In this document: piece after piece, positions 9,433 through 62,691 of the stretch
How positions within the stretch are numbered: the stretch's first letter is position 1
Layout: the number at the start of each line of letters is the position of its first letter
NCBI GenBank assembly: GCA_000433915.1
Contig: HF993646.1
Location: 69,357-133,356 of the forward strand
Source of the DNA: Clostridium sp. CAG:793
GTDB taxonomy: Bacteria; Bacillota; Clostridia; TANB77; CAG-508
DNA length: 64,000 bases
Reading direction: 5' to 3'
Translations under genes and position numbers: made by a program
The notes under the pieces: model-generated
The model's database searches: none
What the model saw: the letters and a program-made list of their open reading frames with translations, nothing else
What the model was told of the DNA's origin: nothing

Positions 9433-10320
9433 ATGGAAATGCACATTGAAAAAATTTTGAACAACACGGTACACTTCTGGCGGGATCTTGCTAAGGAAGT
9501 AAAGAAAGATTGGAGACTTGGGTTTGCATTAATTGTTGGAGTTATTATCAGCTTGATGATCACATTGCCGTATATGTTTCCAAAACAGGTTCAAACTGCT
9601 CATGAAACAGAGAGTACTACCAACAGTGCAAAAGAAACTGGCACTTATGAGGTAGCTCAGGATCGTCAAGAACGTAGTAGCTATATGGTTACGGTAAATG
9701 TTGTAGGTGCTACTAAAGAAATAACTGGAGAGAGCGAACATGTAATGACAATAAGAGAAAATTTTGACAATGAGGATGAAGTTGCACCAATAGGCGAAAA
9801 TGCTAAAACTACTGAAGATGCTAAGGACGCTGAAGTAATTGCAGAGCCTACAAGTTATGACTCGAATTACGATATGTTTCTTAAACTTGTAGCTGCTGAG
9901 TCTGGTAATTGTGGACTGGATGAACAAGAAGCAGTGGCACAGTGCATCTGGAACAGGGCTGGTCATGATATGAATAATATTATGACTGTTGCTACTGCAA
10001 GAGGACAGTTTTCAACTGTAAAGAATGGACAAGCGTATGCTAATTTCTCTGATGGTTATAGAGATGTAAGAATGAGTGACATTAACGATGTTACTAAAGA
10101 AGCAGTTGGAAATGTAGTAAATGGTAAAACCACAGTTGTAGAAGAGGCTTTGGCTGATACAGCTAACCAGATGGGACTCTCAGTGGAAACGTATGCAAGC
10201 GGCGGACCGGTATTCTTTTACAGCCCGAAGTACTGCTCCGAAAGTGCATTGGCTGATAGAGCAGCCATTGCCGTGAAAGTTCAAATTGGAAACCAAGTAT
10301 TCTATAAAGCTTGGCAATGA
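9433..10320 (+). CDS. membrane-anchored SleB-type (Hydrolase_2) cell wall hydrolase
   Basis: N-terminal TM segment, then C-terminal EAVAQCIWNRAGH...ARGQFSTV, typical of the SleB-like catalytic domain. G+C is visibly raised. Confidence 0.7.
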   Translation: MEMHIEKILNNTVHFWRDLAKEVKKDWRLGFALIVGVIISLMITLPYMFPKQVQTAHETESTTNSAKETGTYEVAQDRQERSSYMVTVNVVGATKEITGESEHVMTIRENFDNEDEVAPIGENAKTTEDAKDAEVIAEPTSYDSNYDMFLKLVAAESGNCGLDEQEAVAQCIWNRAGHDMNNIMTVATARGQFSTVKNGQAYANFSDGYRDVRMSDINDVTKEAVGNVVNGKTTVVEEALADTANQMGLSVETYASGGPVFFYSPKYCSESALADRAAIAVKVQIGNQVFYKAWQ

Positions 10321-27242: not shown

Positions 27243-27316
<74 letters not shown>

Positions 27317-27377: not shown

Positions 27378-27534
27378 TTTTGTAATAAATCTTGAAAGAT
27401 GTTCATTTCTGTGGTAAAATTGAAAAGTCAATTAGTTTGATACAGAGTGGAAATCCACTAGATTATTGATGTTATTACATTTATCTAGTCGGAGTTCTGT
27501 GTCCTCCGATAGATATAACACATTGGAGGATTAT

Positions 27535-27999
27535 ATGAGAGTATTCAGAATTGAGGTAAAATTCGAAGATGGTAAAAGTAGCTTACCCGCAAACTTTAAA
27601 GGATTCGTTGCACTGAAAAAATCAGGAAAAATTAGAGGATATGTAGAAGAAAAGATGCCTGATAATCATATTGCTATGCGATACATTTATGGTCAATATG
27701 ACGAAGAACATAACAGGCTTGCTTTCTTTAAGTTGTCAAGCGACAAGGATTACGAACTACCATTTCTTTATGTTTTTCCTAGCTTGAATGAAAGTGGAGA
27801 CGAACTTCAATATACTCCGCTGTTTGATTTCTTCCCGTTTGAAACTATTACAAGACATGTAAGAGTCACAATTAGTGAGGAGACTACTGTAAAGTTTGAT
27901 AGAATTATTGCAAAATACAATAAGGTGATCGAAGATAAAAATAAGCTTAATATTATGCTTATTAGAGATGGAGTAGAAGACTACATACACAAAGTTTAA
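27535..27999 (+). CDS. hypothetical protein (154 aa)
   Basis: The ATG at 27535 lies 5 nt after GGAGG. The ORF-track start at 27466 lacks an RBS and runs through a leader hairpin. No recognisable domain. Confidence 0.6.
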   Translation: MRVFRIEVKFEDGKSSLPANFKGFVALKKSGKIRGYVEEKMPDNHIAMRYIYGQYDEEHNRLAFFKLSSDKDYELPFLYVFPSLNESGDELQYTPLFDFFPFETITRHVRVTISEETTVKFDRIIAKYNKVIEDKNKLNIMLIRDGVEDYIHKV

Positions 28000-28017
28000 A
28001 ATTAGTGGAGATTTATT

Positions 28018-28446
28018 GTGAGAATTAAAGATATTTTTACAAGCCGAGATTGCAGAAGATGCATGAGGATAGCACTGAAACTATTTTTTACAAAATTGCC
28101 TATTGTTAAAGACATTTGCGAAATGAGACAAGCGAATAAGTTAACTAAAAAGCTTGTGAAAAAAGATAGCTGGGAAAGATACACAATAATCAAAAAGATT
28201 GAAGATGAGGCGAATTTTAGAAATAGCTGCATTAATGTGTGGATATGCTCTAATGCAAATGTCTGTACTGAGGAAGATCTTGAAAATGCAAGGAATGATG
28301 CTTTAAGCAATTATTTGATTGACCAACCTAAGTATGCCAATATGAAGAAATATGTTGAAGGAGTGAAACTTCGGAGATTCGATACTGAACACTACAAAGA
28401 GATACTAGAAATCGTTGATACCTGCAAGGTGGATATGATGGATTAA
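28018..28446 (+). CDS. hypothetical Cys-containing protein (142 aa)
   Basis: GTG start after GTGGAG, 18 nt after the previous stop. No recognisable domain. Confidence 0.55.
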   Translation: MRIKDIFTSRDCRRCMRIALKLFFTKLPIVKDICEMRQANKLTKKLVKKDSWERYTIIKKIEDEANFRNSCINVWICSNANVCTEEDLENARNDALSNYLIDQPKYANMKKYVEGVKLRRFDTEHYKEILEIVDTCKVDMMD

Positions 28447-47257: not shown

Positions 47258-47421
47258 GGACAATTATGGATATTAATATAAAATCAAAAAATAAAGAAAA
47301 AATGAGAAAATAAAAGAAATATTGAGAAAAACATACAGAATAAGCATTACAAAATACTGCAAAGTCAAAGGAAATGGAATAAATCACTTTACACAATAAT
47401 ATAAATATTGTATACTATATC

Positions 47422-47986
47422 TTGTTGGTGCAGTATTCTAGTGATATTGCTTATTATGAGAGTGGGGCTAAAAATCCACTAAAAGGCTGACACGAATTTT
47501 ATATTTTGCGCGGGACGCCAAGCTTGTGTGATATATAAAATATGAGAATAGGAAAATATATAATGGCATATATATTAACTCCTCTTTTCGCATAGTCTAT
47601 CAATAGCCTGTTTTGAGTGATAGTCTTGGGATTAACTTAAAAAATAAGATTATTTGGCCAAATAGTTTTATTATTTGTTATGAAATCACTATTGCAAAAA
47701 GAACTAGTAATAAACGTAATATTTCAAGGAAATCTTCTAGACTGTTTGCATCAAATGTGAGAAGTTTTATGGATTAAGATACGGATTTAAGTGGCAATCT
47801 GGTAGCCAAATTTTTGGATGCTCTGATTAAATGGAAACAACTAAACAGTAATGGTTAGTTCGGAGTAGAGAAATTCGACTAGACCTAAACCGTAAAATTT
47901 ACGTATAACTTTACCAACAAAATAAATAAAAAATAAGTAGAGAATTGATATCAAGCGGTAAGTTAAACTTATCGTTTTATTTTTTA
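47422..47986 (+). ncRNA. candidate large structured non-coding RNA (family unassigned)
   Basis: Promoter TTTACA-17-TATACT (47388-47416). Closing helix 47422-29/47913-20, nested helices 47434-42/47703-12 and 47714-24/47895-904, terminator 47954-86. No + strand ORF of 60 aa or more. Confidence 0.4.
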
Positions 47987-54912: not shown

Positions 54913-55497
54913 TTACATATCTGAACTTGTTTCATCATATTCAATATCATATGGTTTAGATTCTTTTTTTACAACTTCTGAGGCAGTTACATTGGTATTA
55001 TTTTTTATAGGTGGTGTAGATGATTCTTTTGTAACTTTTAATGTAACAGAAGAATCTTTTTTGTTATCTAATTTTTTTAATTGTGTGTCAATAATTGAAC
55101 TTGTTTTTTCAACCAAATCTGGGATAAAATCTAAAAGTTTATCTAGTGATGATGAATGGGTAACAGGTAATAATTTTACTCCAGTTGGTTGAATGGCAAT
55201 AAATGCGATTGGGCTGATACTTACTCCAGCACCTGATCCTCCACCAAAAGGCAATCTTGAATTTTCAGAAGATGTGGATTTAGAATCATCGTCTTTTGAC
55301 TTATTTTTGTCATTATTAGTTGGAATTTTAAACTCGCTTCCACCAGCTGCAAAACCGAAATTTACTTTAGAAACTGGAATTATAACAATATTATTAGATG
55401 TTTCAATTGGTTCACCTATTATTGTGTTAACATCAACCATCTCTTTTATTGAATTCATAGCAGTGTTCATTAATCCTTCAATAGGATAATTATTCAT
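54913..55497 (-). CDS. ytfJ: GerW/YtfJ-family sporulation protein with a Ser/Lys-rich C-terminal extension
   Basis: IEGLMNTAMNSIKEMVDVNTIIGEPI...IIPVSKV.FGFAAGG...GGGSGAGVSI.P.AF. The ATG at 55497 follows AAGGAG. Confidence 0.85.
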   Translation of the reverse strand: MNNYPIEGLMNTAMNSIKEMVDVNTIIGEPIETSNNIVIIPVSKVNFGFAAGGSEFKIPTNNDKNKSKDDDSKSTSSENSRLPFGGGSGAGVSISPIAFIAIQPTGVKLLPVTHSSSLDKLLDFIPDLVEKTSSIIDTQLKKLDNKKDSSVTLKVTKESSTPPIKNNTNVTASEVVKKESKPYDIEYDETSSDM

Positions 55498-55529
55498 AAT
55501 ATTTAGCTCCTTTACTTTAAATTTATATG

Positions 55530-55558
55530 TATTATTTACCATATAAAGAAAAATATTC
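55530..55558 (-). promoter_or_regulatory. possible forespore-type promoter for ytfJ
   Basis: Minus-strand GAATA, 17-bp spacer, AATAATA (one mismatch to CATAATA). Confidence 0.3.
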
Positions 55559-55561
55559 AAA

Positions 55562-55616
55562 TTTTTATAAAAAGGCCGAAGCCTAGACGGAAAATTCTGT
55601 CCAGGCTTCGGCCTTG
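55562..55616 (-). terminator. GC-rich intrinsic terminator of the 55.6-kb orphan
   Basis: 17-bp stem AAGGCCGAAGCCTAGAC/GTCCAGGCTTCGGCCTT followed by a T-run on the minus strand. Confidence 0.8.
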
Positions 55617-55637
55617 AAAATAGGAATTAATGTGAAA

Positions 55638-56381
55638 TTAGTCGTTCACATCAATATCTAACATTTCTAATTTTAATTTATCACTCCTAACTGCTGTAAC
55701 AATGCACCGAATATTTGAGTCTAGTGGGTATGTTTTGGTGGAATCTAAGATTCCATACACCATAGGGCTTACTTCAATGATGTAGCCATCATTTGTCTTA
55801 AGTCTTTGAGCGATCCGCCCGACGACCTGACGACCAGGATAGTAATTGGATAGTTGGTCTTTACAAAGATCTTTGATTGATCCATAAATAGTATGGTCAT
55901 AGCGGTTCTTTCCAATAATCTTTATACGATGTTCAGTGCCAAGAGGAGACTGTTTTTTAAGATTATGGATTGGAGCTACTGAGATGTCAGATACCTTGCA
56001 ACGTACAACGCTACTATTATTGGAACACTGCATGATAAGACCATCTTTAAAGTACCCAACAACTCTGCAAATCTGAGAACTTCCAATGTGAACCTTCTGA
56101 TAATCTTCAAGCATTACTTCGCGATGAGAATAGTAACGCTCAGAGCCTTGCTTATGACAAACGTAAACGGTAATCTCCTGACCAAAAAGCCTTTCAACTT
56201 CTTTGGGCATCAGATATGATGTGAAATCATTGGGGTCATACATTGAAACTTCGCTGAGTTCCATGTAGCCAAAGCTACCGGTGTCAAGGTTTAAGAATCT
56301 TAAGCGCTTGGATGGATTGTCCCACCCGACTACTTTGACACGGTATTTCCGGATCTTTTCAGCTGCTGAATTATTTTTCAT
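55638..56381 (-). CDS. uncharacterised OB/S1-like repeat protein (paralogue 1), GC-rich
   Basis: The ATG at 56381 lies 9 nt after GGAGG; the track TTG start is the RBS itself. Several beta-rich G..V.G.V-type segments. The C-terminal half aligns with the 57925-58515 product. Confidence 0.7.
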   Translation of the reverse strand: MKNNSAAEKIRKYRVKVVGWDNPSKRLRFLNLDTGSFGYMELSEVSMYDPNDFTSYLMPKEVERLFGQEITVYVCHKQGSERYYSHREVMLEDYQKVHIGSSQICRVVGYFKDGLIMQCSNNSSVVRCKVSDISVAPIHNLKKQSPLGTEHRIKIIGKNRYDHTIYGSIKDLCKDQLSNYYPGRQVVGRIAQRLKTNDGYIIEVSPMVYGILDSTKTYPLDSNIRCIVTAVRSDKLKLEMLDIDVND

Positions 56382-56432
56382 AGTGTAATCCTCCAAAATT
56401 TAAATTAAAAATGTACAAATCCTTTCTAAAGA

Positions 56433-56485
56433 TTATGAATAACATTCATAATTTTTATGTTAACACAAAATACAATAAAAATCAA
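56433..56485 (-). promoter_or_regulatory. promoter TTGATT-17-TGTTAACAT plus leader palindrome TTATGAAT-N3-ATTCATAA
   Basis: Read on the minus strand. Homologous to 58584-58638. Confidence 0.5.
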
Positions 56486-56563
56486 GTTATTTGCATAATG
56501 TATTCAAAGGACTATAAAGAACATTTTTTATAAAAATACATATAATTGAGTAGGAGGGTGATT

Positions 56564-57846
56564 ATGAAGAAAAATACACATTATATATGTGTGATGATGA
56601 TTTTGACTTTTTTACTTTTAATGATTGGCTGTGCTAATTATACATATGCTATTACACCAGAGTCTAAGGATTGGTATTACGGTGTTGATGTAAGTGGGTG
56701 GCAAGGATATATAGATTATGCAAAAGTAAAAAAGGATAGAATAGATATTGTATATATGAAGTCTAGTGAAGGAAGAACGTGGAAAGATAGTTATTTTGAA
56801 ACGAATTACAGGAATGCCAAAGCAAATGGCTTGAAGGTCCGGAGTATATCATTTTTTAACAGCAACTAATGTGCGCGATGCAGAAGATCAAGCTAGGTTT
56901 TTTGCATCAGTTATATCTGGAAAACAAATAGATTGCAAACTAGCAATGGATTATGAGAGTTTTCAAGGCGCTAGTGTAGAAATGATAAATGCTATATCTA
57001 ATGCATTTTTAAATAAGGTAAGAGAACTAACTGGAAAAGAGACAATAATTTATAGTGACATATATAATGCACAAAATAGGTTTGATAAAGAGCTTGCTGG
57101 AAATTATCCATTATGGCTTGCATATTATGGTGACTATAATAATACTGAAGATATAGATGTGAGATGGAGTAAATGGACTGGAATACAATATTCAGATAGG
57201 GGAAATGTAAGTGGTATAAGAGGTAGTGTTGATAGAGATGTATTCACAAAACAAATATTTTTAGGAAATTCGGATAAAACGCCAGATGTTGTTCATCCAA
57301 ATAATAATCAAAATTCAAATGTTATAGAATATGTTGTAAAAAGTGGTGATACATTGTGGGGAATATCAAGAAGATACAACACAACAATTTCTGAAATAGT
57401 TAATTTAAATAATATTAGTAATCCGAACTTAATTTATCCAGGTGAAGTGCTAAAAATAATAACAAATAGTAATTTGAATGGAACGGAAAATAGAGCTACA
57501 GGAAAGATAATATATACTGTAAAGTCTCGGAGATACTCTATGGGCAATTTCGAGATATTATGGGGTATCTATACAGCAGATTGTTGAACTAAATAATATA
57601 CAAAATCCGAATTTAATATATCCGGGTGAACAATTAAGAATAACATCATTATCAACTAATGGTGTTTTACAAAATAATTATACTAATCCTAATACTCAAG
57701 CAAATTACATTGTATATACAGTAAGATCAGGAGATACATTATGGGCAATTTCTAGATATTATGGGGTATCAATTAATAGAATCGTAACAATAAATCATAT
57801 ACAGAATCCAAACTTGATATATCCAGGGCAAATTTTATATATATAA
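56564..57846 (+). pseudogene. GH25 muramidase with three LysM domains, interrupted by two +1 frameshifts
   Basis: Signal peptide, then DVSGWQG...GLKV | GVYHF...DAEDQARFF across a 1-nt shift at 56840. LysM2 and LysM3 are restored by skipping C at 57528. Confidence 0.85.
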
Positions 57847-57852
57847 ATTATA

Positions 57853-57890
57853 TAAAAACCCCCGTGACACATAGCGTGTGCCACGGGGGT
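57853..57890 (-). terminator. GC-rich terminator of the 57.9-kb orphan
   Basis: Stem ACCCCCGTG.CAC/GTG.CACGGGGGT followed by a T-run on the minus strand. Confidence 0.75.
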
Positions 57891-57924
57891 GCTGAGGTTT
57901 AGTTGTTATAGGCTGCTGGGGTAA

Positions 57925-58515
57925 TTATCCCAGAACTGTGACCTTTTTAAGGATCAGCATATTGGGAGGTGTAATAGCCTCTACTACAGCCTTCACATGT
58001 TTTCCGTAAAGGTACCCTCTGGAGCTTACATACGAAGCTCCAACAGAGCAGCTGAGCTCAACGGCGTATGCGTACAAAGATGCACCGTCTTTAACTTTTT
58101 CACCGTTCCTTTCGACTTGCTCCTTAAGCGCAGGATAGCAGGAGGCATCGGGAGAGATCTCCTCTTGGTAAACAACTGTGGCGTACACGATTGAGCCACG
58201 TTCGAAGTCACGAACCGACAGGGTACATGCGGCACGGATAGAAACCAAAGGATAGACCTTGCCATCTACTTGGTATTTGCCAGGCAGGGTGACGAAAGCA
58301 ACATCTTTGCCGATGGGAAAAGTGTTTTTCAGGTAGTTGCTTGCGCTTTTTCCGGTTGCATACTGGATGCAGTCAGAGATGACTGTAGCTGCATCACTCA
58401 TGCAAGCAACAGTTTCATCACAGTTGTTGCATTTGATGAGCAACGCACAAGGGACACCAGAGTTGTCAAAGACGTAATCAATGATTTTGCCATTAAATTT
58501 TTCCATAAGATCCAT
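57925..58515 (-). CDS. uncharacterised OB/S1-like protein (paralogue 2), GC-rich
   Basis: AGGAG RBS. Two 60-nt lines counted at 47% and 55% G+C. Aligns with the 55638-56381 product. Confidence 0.7.
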   Translation of the reverse strand: MDLMEKFNGKIIDYVFDNSGVPCALLIKCNNCDETVACMSDAATVISDCIQYATGKSASNYLKNTFPIGKDVAFVTLPGKYQVDGKVYPLVSIRAACTLSVRDFERGSIVYATVVYQEEISPDASCYPALKEQVERNGEKVKDGASLYAYAVELSCSVGASYVSSRGYLYGKHVKAVVEAITPPNMLILKKVTVLG

Positions 58516-58583
58516 GTTAATTCTCCTATATGAAATTCACGGGTTGATAACGGACTAAATATAAACCTCTCTTTCTACAAAAA

Positions 58584-58638
58584 TTTATGAATAAAAAATT
58601 CATAAATATATGTTAACATAAATCAGAGAAAAAATCAA
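58584..58638 (-). promoter_or_regulatory. promoter TTGATT-17-TGTTAACAT plus leader palindrome TTTATGAAT-N5-ATTCATAAA
   Basis: Read on the minus strand. Homologous to 56433-56485. Confidence 0.5.
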
Positions 58639-58698
58639 GCTTAATTGTTAAATTTGTAAACTTAAGTTTACAAAGGGAAAAACAACGATACACCTCTA

Positions 58699-58727
58699 TT
58701 TACAAAATCCCCCACTGGGTATATAAT
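58699..58727 (+). promoter_or_regulatory. copZA promoter with a CsoR-type operator in the spacer
   Basis: TTTACA, 17-bp spacer, TATAAT. The spacer holds ATCCCCCACTGGGTAT (the reverse complement contains TACCCAGTGGGGGAT). Confidence 0.6.
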
Positions 58728-58811
58728 AAGCTTGGGGTTGTGAAAAAAGAAAATTTGGAAATAATATATGAATTAGTAGAATTATTTAAAAAATAATAAA
58801 TAAGAAAGGAT

Positions 58812-59030
58812 ATGAAAGAAATGAAAGGATTAAAATTAAAAATAAATGGAATGATGTGCGGAGGATGTGAAAATAGAGTAAAAAATGCATTATTAGAAAT
58901 AGATGGAGTAGAAAGTGTAGAAGCTGATCACAATACAGGAATAGTTGTAATAAATTCTAAAAAAGATTTAGATATAGCTAAAATCAAAGAACAAATAATT
59001 GATATTGGATATGAAATTGTAGAGGAATAA
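58812..59030 (+). CDS. copZ: copper chaperone CopZ
   Basis: HMA domain with MMCGGC. The start may be the second ATG at 58821. Confidence 0.88.
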   Translation: MKEMKGLKLKINGMMCGGCENRVKNALLEIDGVESVEADHNTGIVVINSKKDLDIAKIKEQIIDIGYEIVEE

Positions 59031-59031
59031 T

Positions 59032-61239
59032 ATGAAAAGAATAATTTTATCAATAGATGGAATGACATGTAGTGCGTGTTCTAATGGATTGGAGAAATAT
59101 TTAAATAAACAAAATGGAATAATAAATGCGTCTGTTAATTTAGTAATGGCTAATGCCACAATTGATTATGATGAGAAAATACTAGATCAAGAAAAAATTG
59201 AAAAATATGTAAAACAGGCAGGATTCAAGAGCTTAGGGATATTTAAAAAAATAGGAAATGAAGAAAAAAGTAAAAAAGAAAAAATAAAGTTTATATTTTT
59301 TACTATTATGGCGATTGTAATGATGTATATTTCAATGGGACACATGATTGGTTTGCCTTCAATAAAAATAATTGATATGCATCATAATACGGTTGGATAT
59401 GCAATAGCGATGATGATAATTTCAATTCTATTTTTAATATATGGATATGATATATTGAAAAACGGATATAAAAATTTGATTCATGTAATGCCTAATATGG
59501 ATACTCTAGTTTCTTTAGGAGTGGTAAGTAGTTTTGCTTATAGTGTGTATGAGATGATTAGCATAACTAAAGGAAATATGGCGAGTGTATCAAATTTGTA
59601 TTTTGAATCAGCCGCAATAGTAATATATTTTGTTAAACTTGGAAGATATATAGATGGAATCAGTACTGGAAAAACAAAAGATGCTATAAAAAAATTAGTT
59701 GAGATAACTCCTGAAAATGCCACAATAGAGATTGATGGAAAAGAAAAAGTTGTTACACTTGATGAAATAAAAAAAGATATGATAGTAATTGTAAAACCAG
59801 GTGAAAAGGTTGCCGTTGATGGAGAAATTATATCAGGTAAAGCTCATTTTGATGAATCATTTATTACAGGTGAAAGTAAGCCAACTCTTAAAGAAAGTGG
59901 AAACAAAGTACTAGCAGGGAGTATGAATTATGATGGCTATGTAAAATACAAAGCAGAAAGAATAGGTAAAGATTCGACTGTTTCTGAAATAGTAAGGCTT
60001 GTAATTGATGCTAGTAACACAAAAGCACCTATTGCTAAGATTGCAGATAAAATATGCAGTTATTTCGTTCCATCTGTTATAGCTATAGCATTTATTACTT
60101 TGTGTGCATATCTTTTAATGGGACAAGGCATAGCAAATGCCATTAGTACATTTGTAACTGTATTAGTTGTTGCATGTCCTTGTAGTTTGGGACTTGCTAC
60201 ACCGCTTGCAATAATTGTAAGTGAGGGAATTTGTGCTAGTCATGGAATATTAGTGAAAAAAAGTGAAATCTTAGAAAATGCATCTAAAATTGATACTATT
60301 ATATTTGACAAGACTGGAACTATAACATATGGTATGTTAAAGATATCGGAGATAATTAATTATTCTGACATGGAAAATGATGAAATAATAAAAATTGCTG
60401 GTAGTATTGAAGCGAAATCAACTCATCCAATTAGTAAAGCATTTGCAGATTATATGACTGAAAATAAAATTATTCCGTATAATATAGATGAATTTGAAAA
60501 CATAAGTGGATATGGAATTGTGGGAAATATAGAAAACAAAAAATATATAATTGGAAACAGCAAAATAATTGATAAATATGATATAGCAAATGATCATAAA
60601 GATGATGAGCTAAGATTGTCTAAAGGCGGAAATAGCATTGTGTATATTGCTAAGGACAACAAGATAATTGCTATGATAGGCGTTAATGACATTGTAAGAG
60701 AAAATGTAAGAGATGTAATCAGCAGATTAAACAAAAGAAATATTGCTACTATAATGCTAACAGGTGACAATGAGGAAACTGCTGGAAATGTTGGAAAACA
60801 AATAGGTATAACAGAAGTAATTGCAAATGTTTTACCAGCTGACAAGGCAAATGAGATAAAGAAATTAAAGAAAGAAAATCATAGAGTTATGATGTGCGGA
60901 GATGGGATAAACGATAGTCCAGCTCTTGCAAATGCTGATATAGGTGTTAGTGTACAAAGTGGTACTGATATTGCTATGGATGCATCTGATGTAATATTGA
61001 CTAAAAATGACTTGAATTCTGTATTACAATTAATACAAATAAGTGAAAAAACAGTTAGAAATATAAAACAGAATTTGTTTTGGGCATTTTTCTATAATGT
61101 TTTAATGATACCAATAGCAATGGGAATATTTAAATTTGCAGGAATATCTATTAATCCAATGATTGCAAGCTTAGCAATGATGTTTAGTAGTTTAACGGTT
61201 ATATTAAATGCCTTAAGATTAAAAAGAATGAATATATAA
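59032..61239 (+). CDS. copA: copper-translocating P1B-type ATPase
   Basis: N-terminal GMTCSAC, CPC (VVACPCSLG), DKTGT, GDGIND. Confidence 0.96.
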   Translation: MKRIILSIDGMTCSACSNGLEKYLNKQNGIINASVNLVMANATIDYDEKILDQEKIEKYVKQAGFKSLGIFKKIGNEEKSKKEKIKFIFFTIMAIVMMYISMGHMIGLPSIKIIDMHHNTVGYAIAMMIISILFLIYGYDILKNGYKNLIHVMPNMDTLVSLGVVSSFAYSVYEMISITKGNMASVSNLYFESAAIVIYFVKLGRYIDGISTGKTKDAIKKLVEITPENATIEIDGKEKVVTLDEIKKDMIVIVKPGEKVAVDGEIISGKAHFDESFITGESKPTLKESGNKVLAGSMNYDGYVKYKAERIGKDSTVSEIVRLVIDASNTKAPIAKIADKICSYFVPSVIAIAFITLCAYLLMGQGIANAISTFVTVLVVACPCSLGLATPLAIIVSEGICASHGILVKKSEILENASKIDTIIFDKTGTITYGMLKISEIINYSDMENDEIIKIAGSIEAKSTHPISKAFADYMTENKIIPYNIDEFENISGYGIVGNIENKKYIIGNSKIIDKYDIANDHKDDELRLSKGGNSIVYIAKDNKIIAMIGVNDIVRENVRDVISRLNKRNIATIMLTGDNEETAGNVGKQIGITEVIANVLPADKANEIKKLKKENHRVMMCGDGINDSPALANADIGVSVQSGTDIAMDASDVILTKNDLNSVLQLIQISEKTVRNIKQNLFWAFFYNVLMIPIAMGIFKFAGISINPMIASLAMMFSSLTVILNALRLKRMNI

Positions 61240-61245
61240 TAAAAT

Positions 61246-61296
61246 GGCCGCCATGGCAATACTTCCATTTGGAAGCAATAACCCTGGCGGCGTTTT
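61246..61296. terminator. GC-rich bidirectional terminator between copA and the 61.3-kb orphan
   Basis: Outer stem GCCGCCA/TGGCGGC and inner stem TTCCA/TGGAA, with T-runs on both sides. Confidence 0.7.
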
Positions 61297-61342
61297 GTAT
61301 GTGGCCTAAAGAGTGGCCACAGAGATAATTAAATTATTCGGG

Positions 61343-62269
61343 TTATGCGAGGCTGCTGAGGTCGAATACGCCGATCAAGCCAACATTTGCAATCATAGCC
61401 TTAAAGAGCCTCTCGACAGGACATTCGAAAATGCCTCCTTCGATGCTGCTATCTAGCAGCACAGCTGTCGTTCCTTCAAAGCCGATGAGGGTGACATACC
61501 GTCCTTCGACTTTTTCGGGGTCATCGAGATATATGGAGTTCTGGACTCTCACGATAACACCGATTCCTTTCCAGAGATTTTCAAAGATCTCATGGATGTT
61601 GTGCAGACGGGTGTCACGGTAGGCAATAGGATGTACGTCGCGAATTCTGACACCAAAGTTAGCGATGAGTTCGTCAAGATAGTACATAGAACCACCAATA
61701 CCATGAGGTCTGCCCAAAACCTTGATGATGTCTTCAGGGGTCTTAGCGTTTTTAAGAGAACTGATGACTTCATGGGTTGCTTCTTTCAAGAAACGGCTGT
61801 TGCTGAGGAAAACCTTCTTGATTTCTTCAACTTTGATTTCGGTCCACCCGAACGAAATGTACGGGAATTTCTCACAGCACCACATTCTGTAGCCTTTAGT
61901 GGCTGCATCTTTAATGAACTCTTCTACAGCAGGGATGTATCCGTTGCTTTTGTAAAAATCAGTGGATGTCAAAGCGTAAAAGGAATTATGGGCAGAGAGA
62001 CCTAAAACTCCAGCTCTTTCTACTGTGCCAATGATACCAAAAGGCATATCAGCATAATCTTTGGCAAATGCCAATTCATTGTATTCCCGCTTAAGTAGGG
62101 GATAGCTGTAGCTAAAAATCAATTCTTGGGTATCTTGCGGATTCTTAAGTGCATTTTCAATGGAATATTTCATTCCATAAGCACTACTGAGTACAAAGTC
62201 TTTCCTTTCTAGATATTTTGCCCGACTGCGCTCGCAGTCCGGAATGTGTTGAATCAGATAGTTACTCAT
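61343..62269 (-). CDS. hypothetical protein (308 aa), GC-rich orphan
   Basis: GGAGG RBS. One 60-nt line counted at 53% G+C. No domain recognised. Confidence 0.7.
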   Translation of the reverse strand: MSNYLIQHIPDCERSRAKYLERKDFVLSSAYGMKYSIENALKNPQDTQELIFSYSYPLLKREYNELAFAKDYADMPFGIIGTVERAGVLGLSAHNSFYALTSTDFYKSNGYIPAVEEFIKDAATKGYRMWCCEKFPYISFGWTEIKVEEIKKVFLSNSRFLKEATHEVISSLKNAKTPEDIIKVLGRPHGIGGSMYYLDELIANFGVRIRDVHPIAYRDTRLHNIHEIFENLWKGIGVIVRVQNSIYLDDPEKVEGRYVTLIGFEGTTAVLLDSSIEGGIFECPVERLFKAMIANVGLIGVFDLSSLA

Positions 62270-62436
62270 GATGTAAAACCTCCAATTGTTTAATTATCTC
62301 TTCAATAGAGATATCTTTATTATAACATATTATGTTAATAAAAACAATGCAATACGTAAATTTCTTTGAAAAATCAACAATTTTAAGGACAAAACTTAAA
62401 AAATATGCTATAATACTAATGATTGGAGTGTTAGAG

Positions 62437-62691
62437 ATGGAAAAAAAGACATATAAAGAAGCAAATAAGTCAGAAACTGAAACAACTATTAATGTACTAT
62501 ATCATGAAAAAATAATTACTATTTACACTAATAAAGTTGATTTGCAAAAAAAATTGAATAAATTATTAGGAGCTCCAACAAGAGAGTATAAGACTAAAAG
62601 ATCAATTACAGGAAGTTCATGGGATATTTCAATGGATGATAAAAGTATTATATCTAAGTTGATTCTTAAAGCTAATATATTTGAAATTTAA
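62437..62691 (+). CDS. hypothetical small protein (84 aa)
   Basis: The ATG at 62437 follows GGAG, and a TATAAT lies at 62408. Host-like composition. Confidence 0.5.
   Translation: MEKKTYKEANKSETETTINVLYHEKIITIYTNKVDLQKKLNKLLGAPTREYKTKRSITGSSWDISMDDKSIISKLILKANIFEI

Follow-up and report, generated by a model that had tools for sequence, protein, structure and literature searches.

Two single-gene modules for divergent S1-domain proteins with a shared promoter and a putative 5′ stem-loop in Clostridium sp. CAG:793

Proteins with S1 domains rank among the best-known RNA binders. S1 domains bind single-stranded RNA, and ribosomal protein S1 (bS1), which has four to six domains in 380-560 amino acids (aa), represses its own translation on rpsA. 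The Firmicutes also have stand-alone S1 proteins without an enzymatic domain, GSP13/YugI, CvfD, Ygs, YabR and CvfB/YitL. Of these, GSP13, CvfD and Ygs are single-domain S1 proteins, and CvfB combines three S1_2 domains with a C-terminal winged helix. At the level of the message, 5′ stem-loops and the stabilising Shine-Dalgarno element (STAB-SD) are known stabilisers of messenger RNA (mRNA). In Bacillus, initiating ribosomes protect the hbs mRNA, as does a 14-bp interaction between its 5′ and 3′ untranslated regions (UTRs) (PMC5737220). The window described here, a stretch of 64,000 nucleotides (nt; 64 kb) from contig HF993646.1 of Clostridium sp. CAG:793, contains two genes, designated A and B, that appear to belong to a small S1-only family with neither a name nor a family model nor an assigned role.

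The reading that we favour, with a probability of roughly 0.55, is that A and B are single-gene units for small cytoplasmic RNA-binding proteins made of S1 and oligonucleotide/oligosaccharide-binding (OB) domains only, each carried in a cassette with a stem-loop that would act in RNA. The proposed order of the cassette is a sigma-A-type promoter, the stem-loop, a purine box resembling a Shine-Dalgarno (SD) sequence, the real ribosome-binding site (RBS) and a strong intrinsic terminator. The predicted features of the two modules, in the direction of transcription, are as follows.

56457..56485, minus strand: promoter of A, with -35 TTGATT at 56485-56480, a T-rich spacer of 17 nt, and TGT-TAACAT with the -10 hexamer at 56462-56457
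56433..56451, minus strand: hairpin of A, TTATGAAT-GTT-ATTCATAA, beginning 5-6 nt past the -10, at or next to the predicted start
56420..56427, minus strand: purine box of A, AGAAAGGA, SD-like, about 40 nt 5′ of the real SD
55638..56381, minus strand: gene A, 247 aa, with three S1-like domains at about aa 12-75, 95-170 and 178-243
55572..55615, minus strand: terminator of A, a 17-bp G+C-rich stem and a T run (-34.2 kcal/mol, z = -7.7)
58610..58638, minus strand: promoter of B, with -35 TTGATT at 58638-58633, a spacer of 17 nt, and TGT-TAACAT with the -10 hexamer at 58615-58610
58584..58606, minus strand: hairpin of B, TTTATGAAT-TTTTT-ATTCATAAA, at or next to the predicted start; the local stem has -7 kcal/mol
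58566..58576, minus strand: purine box of B, AGAAAGAGAGG, SD-like, 5′ of the real SD and kept in the sister species
57925..58515, minus strand: gene B, 196 aa, with two S1/OB-like domains equivalent to domains 2 and 3 of A, each with an insertion
57858..57890, minus strand: terminator of B, a 14-bp G+C-rich stem and a T run (-27.1 kcal/mol)

In such a cassette the palindrome would act in the RNA as a 5′-terminal stem-loop and, jointly with the terminator and the purine box, would shield the mRNA from 5′-end-dependent decay and from 3′ exonucleolytic decay, while the purine-rich leader may be bound by the protein that it encodes, giving feedback control. A stabilising role is suggested by the combination of hairpin, purine box, RBS and terminator, since these are features of stabilised Gram-positive messages.

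The S1 character of A is evident from its family. Word-indexed protein searches with A and B returned near-identical proteins only, and an exhaustive HMMER search with a profile of A gave 32 relatives at E < 1e-3, most of them 226-290 aa long. Pfam S1 (PF00575) is matched by 27 of the 31 family sequences aligned with A (best E 2.5e-15), and the NCBIfam S1 and rpsA models match the aligned relatives at the domain level. The family profile also matches entries of the Protein Data Bank (PDB), bS1 at E 1e-41 and Rrp5 at E 1e-55, across two to three domains. Since the family matches Pfam S1 and its profile matches bS1 and Rrp5, A is interpreted as a divergent three-S1-domain protein; in sequence terms it enters the S1 superfamily through its family rather than alone. 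The family itself, unnamed and apparently S1-only, has members of 226-290 aa. The S1/OB fold guessed in the initial annotation is therefore right, but its statement that the proteins fall into no described family is wrong, because the family is part of the S1-domain superfamily. The family loci recovered are AT-rich, and some of them carry sporulation genes. An AlphaFold2 model of A, built from a shallow alignment, has a predicted local distance difference test score (pLDDT) of 45 and is too poor to judge the fold.

Both genes behave as coding sequences under constraint. In A the ratio of nonsynonymous to synonymous diversity (piN/piS) is 0.13, and the ratio of nonsynonymous to synonymous divergence (dN/dS) from the sister species, which is about 87% identical to this one in these proteins, is 0.083; the corresponding dN/dS of B is 0.078. 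A structured noncoding RNA in place of genes was rejected, since variation falls mainly at third codon positions in open reading frames (ORFs) of 196-308 codons, gene C described below included (dN/dS 0.08, piN/piS 0.13-0.18), and Rfam gave no match. Rfam 15, in particular, has no match at E <= 1 in 55400-62500 and, at gathering thresholds, none to the leaders in 12 related loci. A defence-system or phage protein is likewise unsupported, the PADLOC 2.0 defence models being matched by none of A, B, gene C and the 31 aligned family sequences, and the PHROGs being empty for the same proteins.

Gene B is more diverged, and we read it as a lineage-specific two-domain paralogue of A that lacks domain 1. 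The similarity of A and B, which had been drawn by eye, is marginal when the two proteins are compared pairwise (BLASTP E 0.045; Smith-Waterman shuffle p 0.014) and is significant at the profile level only. There, hhalign of B against the A family gives a probability of 68% and E 4.8e-5, with B 60-185 aligned to A 139-235. The A-family hidden Markov model (HMM) scores B at 12.3 bits (P 4.6e-6 as a single comparison), while 4000 shuffled copies of B all score at most 8.9 bits; this match is significant as a planned comparison, but it would fail in a database-wide search. In a MAFFT alignment the C-terminal 135 or so residues of B stand in register with the family motifs, so the earlier placement of B on the C-terminal part of A holds at the level of hhalign, HMM and alignment register.

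The AlphaFold2 model of B (pLDDT 87.5) predicts two OB barrels, each with three strands, a helix and two strands, which is the five-stranded OB arrangement with a helix between strands 3 and 4. The best PDB match of this model in Foldseek is to domains D3-D4 of ribosomal protein S1 (E 3e-5), followed by other tandem OB proteins, and on the viral side phage S1 proteins are the best matches. The hits also include 3go5, which is described only as a Streptococcus pneumoniae multidomain protein with nucleic-acid-binding domains and is presumably a CvfB homologue.

The block upstream of both genes has the form of a sigma-A-type promoter whose -10 is TG-extended. The pattern TTGATTTTT-N11-TGTTAACATA occurs at exactly two sites in the 64 kb, 56456-56485 and 58609-58638, a match count that no shuffle reached, and the family promoter profile finds only the A (E 1e-6) and B (E 1e-7) sites in the window. 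The upstream homology recognised in the initial annotation, and with it the unit of promoter plus gene, is thus real. The spacing of 17 bp that it gave is correct between the hexamers TTGATT and TAACAT, but the two 10-mers that it quoted are really 11 nt apart, and the literal pattern with N15-19 between them has no match. Across the family the block takes the form cTTGatTTTT-N7-TTTATGTTAACATA, and cTTGatTTTT-N7-TTTATGTTAA(C/T)ATA is found upstream of distant family genes whose proteins are 19-28% identical to A. A more distant canonical-S1 branch, represented by P0096, does not have it. The block is a signature of the whole subfamily and is kept in other species. The likeness between the promoters of A and B therefore does not prove that the genes were recently duplicated on the spot, and the shared promoter on which the duplicated module of the initial annotation was based is no mark of such an event.

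Scans of metagenome and viral contigs with the promoter pattern came upon a family gene at 2 of 197 loci, the rest being mostly chance, and the chance motif matches in unrelated contigs were reused as controls for the hairpin. A literature search for TGTTAACA returned primers and unrelated papers only. As a separate observation, 8 of 12 family promoters are followed by an ATG 5-9 nt past the -10, at 56447-56449 and 58601-58603 in the window and at the family loci L013, L014, L220, L223, L095 and L084. In several of them a stop codon follows at once or nearly so (ATGTAG, ATGTGA, ATGAATTAG). This ATG could be a leaderless start-stop element, or merely the context of the transcription start.

The palindromes lie where they had been located, at 56433-56451 and 58584-58606, and a counterpart is common in the family. 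A perfect stem of at least 5 bp that begins 2-9 nt past the -10 is present in 7 of 10 independent family lineages, as counted with our own script rather than a covariance model, against 19 of the 191 chance promoter-motif occurrences (Fisher p 2.5e-5). The stems vary among lineages (ATGAAT, ATGTGAA, ATGGG, TAAGG, GTTGG and TATGGA), with loops of 3-7 nt, and six differing stems at one position amount to compensatory change. The purine boxes are situated about 40-55 nt upstream of the real ribosome-binding sites and occupy the same place in the family leaders. The real SD of A is GGAGG, 8 nt before the ATG at 56381, and that of B is AGGAG, 7 nt before the ATG at 58515. At the other end of each gene, the GC-rich hairpin seen earlier proves to be a strong intrinsic terminator. 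The 3′ arm of the A hairpin and the bases that follow it (56426-56442) are also complementary at 16 of 17 positions to the RBS and start of the downstream gene ytfJ (55490-55506), which may be chance, since both contain ATTATGAAT.

Whether the palindrome is an operator or a 5′ stem-loop had been left as a choice in the initial annotation. A dimeric repressor that binds ATGAAT-N-ATTCAT, and perhaps also TATGTTAACATA, would co-regulate A and B. The half-sites are indeed identical in the two genes, the sister species keeps these arms while the loop changes, the palindrome overlaps the predicted start, and the -10 region is itself a 12-bp palindrome, TATGTTAACATA, in 9 of 12 family promoters. Such an operator is nevertheless unlikely. 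The loop between the identical half-sites measures 3 nt in A, 5 nt for B and 4 nt for the B gene of the sister species, so that the fixed spacing of a dimeric operator is missing, and a rigid dimer would not tolerate the variation. In other lineages the stem sequence is wholly different even though its position is kept. The 64 kb contain no further copy of ATGAAT-N2-7-ATTCAT and thus no sign of a regulon. An extended palindromic operator about the -10 was rejected, because its symmetry ends at 12 bp and is broken in three lineages with TAATAT. Since structure is kept while sequence and spacing change, a 5′ stem-loop in the RNA is the better supported of the two. The leader might instead be mainly autoregulatory, with the S1 proteins binding their own purine-rich leader to repress translation and the hairpin serving only to position the site. 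The affinity of S1 domains for single-stranded RNA is in keeping with this, the leader architecture goes with the coding sequence throughout the family while other intergenic DNA diverges, and most members have a purine box between the hairpin and the real RBS. However, the purine boxes differ in sequence and in several relatives pair with the 3′ UTR instead, and a fixed promoter block stands beside very rapid divergence of the proteins. As the main function of the leader, autoregulation also seems unlikely, although as an addition or alternative to the stabiliser role it would be reasonable.

Pairing between the two UTRs is a feature of some relatives only. The complementarity extends over 18 nt in L013, 13 nt in L014 and about 16 bp in L223 (p <= 0.002-0.015) and is weaker in L220 and L095, each of which has two separate complementary segments in the same order. 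The partners, which are exactly complementary, are a purine-rich segment of the leader and the 3′ UTR just before the terminator (in L013, about 180-200 with about 1452-1470); as DNA, these segments form inverted repeats that enclose the coding sequence but not the promoter. In the window the longest complementarity is 5 nt for A and 8 nt for B (p 0.057), with a duplex energy z of about 0, and pairing is unsupported for the window's own genes.

Several observations weigh against a stabilising cassette for S1/OB proteins. Taken singly, A and B have no match in Pfam (for A, at E <= 1), NCBIfam, PHROG or PADLOC, so that neither reaches a Pfam or NCBIfam threshold, and the model of B is not an independent test, since its input alignment included the S1 family. 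Three lineages have no hairpin. The hairpins are short and AU-rich (-4 to -7 kcal/mol), the whole leaders fold no better than shuffled sequences (z -0.6 and -1.6), and that the hairpin is transcribed at all is inferred from the position of the -10. Moreover, rapid protein evolution is a poor fit to an abundant housekeeping RNA chaperone, and high synonymous divergence is not what strong codon selection would give.

The base composition of the modules is as distinctive as their leaders. With 29.5% G+C the window is AT-rich, and its genes, recA, scpA, ytfJ/gerW and copZA among them, include those for sporulation and housekeeping. In 200-nt intervals, A has 39-41% G+C and B 45-52%, compared with 25-30% in the surroundings, and the G+C fraction at third codon positions (GC3) is 0.379 in A and 0.482 in B, against a median of 0.178 for the 55 ORFs of the window. 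Both genes use CTC, CTG, GTC, ATC, ACC, CGC and CGG, which are scarcely used by host genes, and avoid ATA and TTA. A and B are thus compositionally foreign to their surroundings, as had been claimed, and by GC3 they have the atypical composition and codon usage of a genomic island. In six of six other hosts, however, the family gene also has a GC3 above that of its neighbours (0.22-0.33 against neighbour means of 0.11-0.18), and the polarised polymorphisms in A comprise 23 GC-to-AT and 25 AT-to-GC changes, without an AT-ward drift, which implies an equilibrium close to the present G+C. Since raised GC3 is family-wide and A shows no such drift, a simple recent foreign origin does not best account for the composition. 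Codons that stay GC-rich in an AT-rich genome, like the fast evolution described below, are a property of the family that is only more extreme in this species.

These data bear on the idea that A, B and the unrelated gene C are recent foreign single-gene islands from a donor of about 45-50% G+C. Codon usage strongly unlike that of the host at all three codon positions speaks for it, as do the bounded form of every gene, with its own promoter and terminator, and the peaks of strain diversity at A and C. In other genomes, moreover, the family gene is found at different loci, two of which adjoin a gene for transfer RNA (tRNA) or transfer-messenger RNA. Apart from the family-wide GC3 and the 23 and 25 changes in A, the positions of the genes argue against it. 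A, B and C occupy the same positions in eight independent metagenome contigs, and A and B do so in the sister species. Variable presence or an empty site, as expected of a mobile module, was not seen among these contigs and the sister species, although the contigs were retrieved through protein B, so that strains without B could not appear. Scans of the reference-genome collection for empty sites, with B and CopA as queries, gave no match. There are no integrase or transposase ORFs nearby and no flanking direct repeats, phages, plasmids and viral contigs gave no match, and no donor-like relative is present among 1.8 billion representative proteins. Recent islands are improbable, and the cargo island of the initial annotation is unsupported within the species, where eight strains share the synteny with the sister species and marks of mobility are missing.

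The two modules evolve under purifying selection, at 2-5 times the rate of their flanks. Against the sister species, A and B have a synonymous divergence (dS) of 0.85-0.89, compared with 0.18-0.43 in the genes that flank them. Among strains, diversity rises from about 0.005 in the flanks to 0.04-0.05 within the 3′ half of A and to 0.03-0.056 in gene C. In two other related genomes the flanking proteins are 86-91% identical and the family protein 38%; the divergent block in this pair has sharp edges, at about -300 to +800 around the gene, between flanks of 85-90% DNA identity. Such a sharply bounded block exceeds what a uniformly raised rate would give and suggests replacement of a whole module. 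Across L012, L017, L220 and L221, loci of related genomes, the neighbours PriA, FolD, VWA and DinB are 72-91% identical and the S1-family protein in the same slot 33-38%. The cassette could be a replaceable hypervariable unit of "conflict" S1/OB genes, whose alleles are recombined into conserved chromosomal slots; this is a doubtful reading. The conflict proteins might sense phage RNA or RNA-targeting factors, or be decoys for them. Swapping of the cassette would explain the sharp unalignable blocks, the GC-rich codons unlike those of the host and the 5- to 10-fold excess of strain diversity, and under it the 13-18-nt inverted repeats of the relatives would be either RNA cyclisation elements or sites of recombination or inversion. 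A diversity-generating retroelement with a template repeat was rejected as the source of the variability of A, because the changes are ordinary transitions rather than adenine-biased, there is no template repeat, and the window has no second copy of A, B or C.

The two modules are separated by a third gene, which is not part of either.

56564..57850, plus strand: lysin pseudogene between the modules, with a signal peptide, GH25 and three LysM repeats (Pfam, three-frame translation)

The lysin gene is broken, as had been noted, by two frameshifts, near 56840 and 57520. The split into 101 and 238 aa is called in seven of eight strains, being slightly different in L005. The sister species, too, has the first of the two breaks. 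Since the split is common to the strains and its first break is shared with the sister species, the gene is either an old fixed pseudogene or one that needs recoding.

Gene C, at 61343-62269 on the minus strand, encodes 308 aa with a GC3 of 0.47 and has its own promoter, leader palindrome and terminator. Its relatives are 29-38% identical, some with Pfam PF13529 (C39-like peptidase), and its piN/piS is 0.18. A third paralogue was considered and rejected, because gene C has no similarity to A or B. On the side of copZ, the sister species has a csoR-type repressor gene (Pfam PF02583, Trns_repr_metal) between copZ and B (L010, 1964-2257), while the corresponding place in the window, 58640-58811, has no such gene. 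The window contains other compositional outliers. A cell-wall hydrolase gene (Pfam PF07486) at 9433-10320 on the plus strand has 40% G+C and a GC3 of 0.31. Two adjacent orphan genes at 27469-28446 on the plus strand, of 176 and about 127-142 aa, have GC3 values of 0.29 and 0.36 and no Pfam match; lying directly 3′ of a tRNA gene (27243-27313), they have the look of a small insertion linked to the tRNA. At 47409-47933 on the plus strand the window contains a full-length OLE (ornate large extremophilic) RNA (Rfam RF01071, 248 bits, E 6e-69).

In its behaviour the family is unlike a housekeeping one. Its promoter is kept nearly letter for letter while the protein diverges, its codons are GC-rich, and in a common human-gut bacterium strain diversity is concentrated in it. 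A leader that acted as a 5′ stabiliser or as an autoregulatory site would be a cis-regulatory RNA motif new to Rfam. Swapping of the cassette between strains would point to a class of RNA-binding genes, fast-evolving and so far unrecognised, in gut Clostridia. Failing both, A and B are no more than two divergent S1-domain genes whose promoters and terminators are good.

Compared with the known S1 proteins, A and B resemble bS1 and Rrp5 in their predicted tandem S1/OB barrels and in the match of the family profile over two to three domains. However, A has three domains and B two, in 247 and 196 aa, compared with the four to six of the much longer bS1. They show no sign of its ribosome-binding N-terminal domains and, unlike bS1, they evolve very fast. 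Neither A nor B reaches the cut-off of the NCBIfam rpsA model TIGR00717, which the relatives match at the domain level only. Because of their domain number, their size and the missed curated cut-off, they are not bS1. Another likeness is to the stand-alone S1 proteins of the Firmicutes, which also lack an enzymatic domain: the NCBIfam models for CvfD, Ygs and GSP13 match 20 of the 31 family sequences at the domain level, though not A or B directly. These three differ from A and B in their single S1 domain. CvfB, like A, has three domains, but Pfam finds neither S1_2 nor winged-helix domains in A, B or their relatives, and since the winged helix is absent, A and B are not CvfB.

The leaders, as far as they can be read from the DNA, share with 5′-terminal stem-loops, the cryIIIA STAB-SD and hbs a putative 5′ hairpin, an upstream SD-like box and a strong terminator. 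Some relatives of A resemble hbs in addition, with a 5′/3′-UTR complementarity of 13-18 nt comparable to the 14-bp hbs interaction (PMC5737220), whereas A and B of the window have no significant complementarity of this type. The element here also differs from the known stabilisers in being tied to one gene family and to a nearly invariant promoter. The cis module thus appears to resemble described 5′ stabilisers and yet to be itself undescribed and peculiar to one family. Ordinary as the class of protein is, the family stands out by its conserved cassette, its composition and the rate at which it changes.

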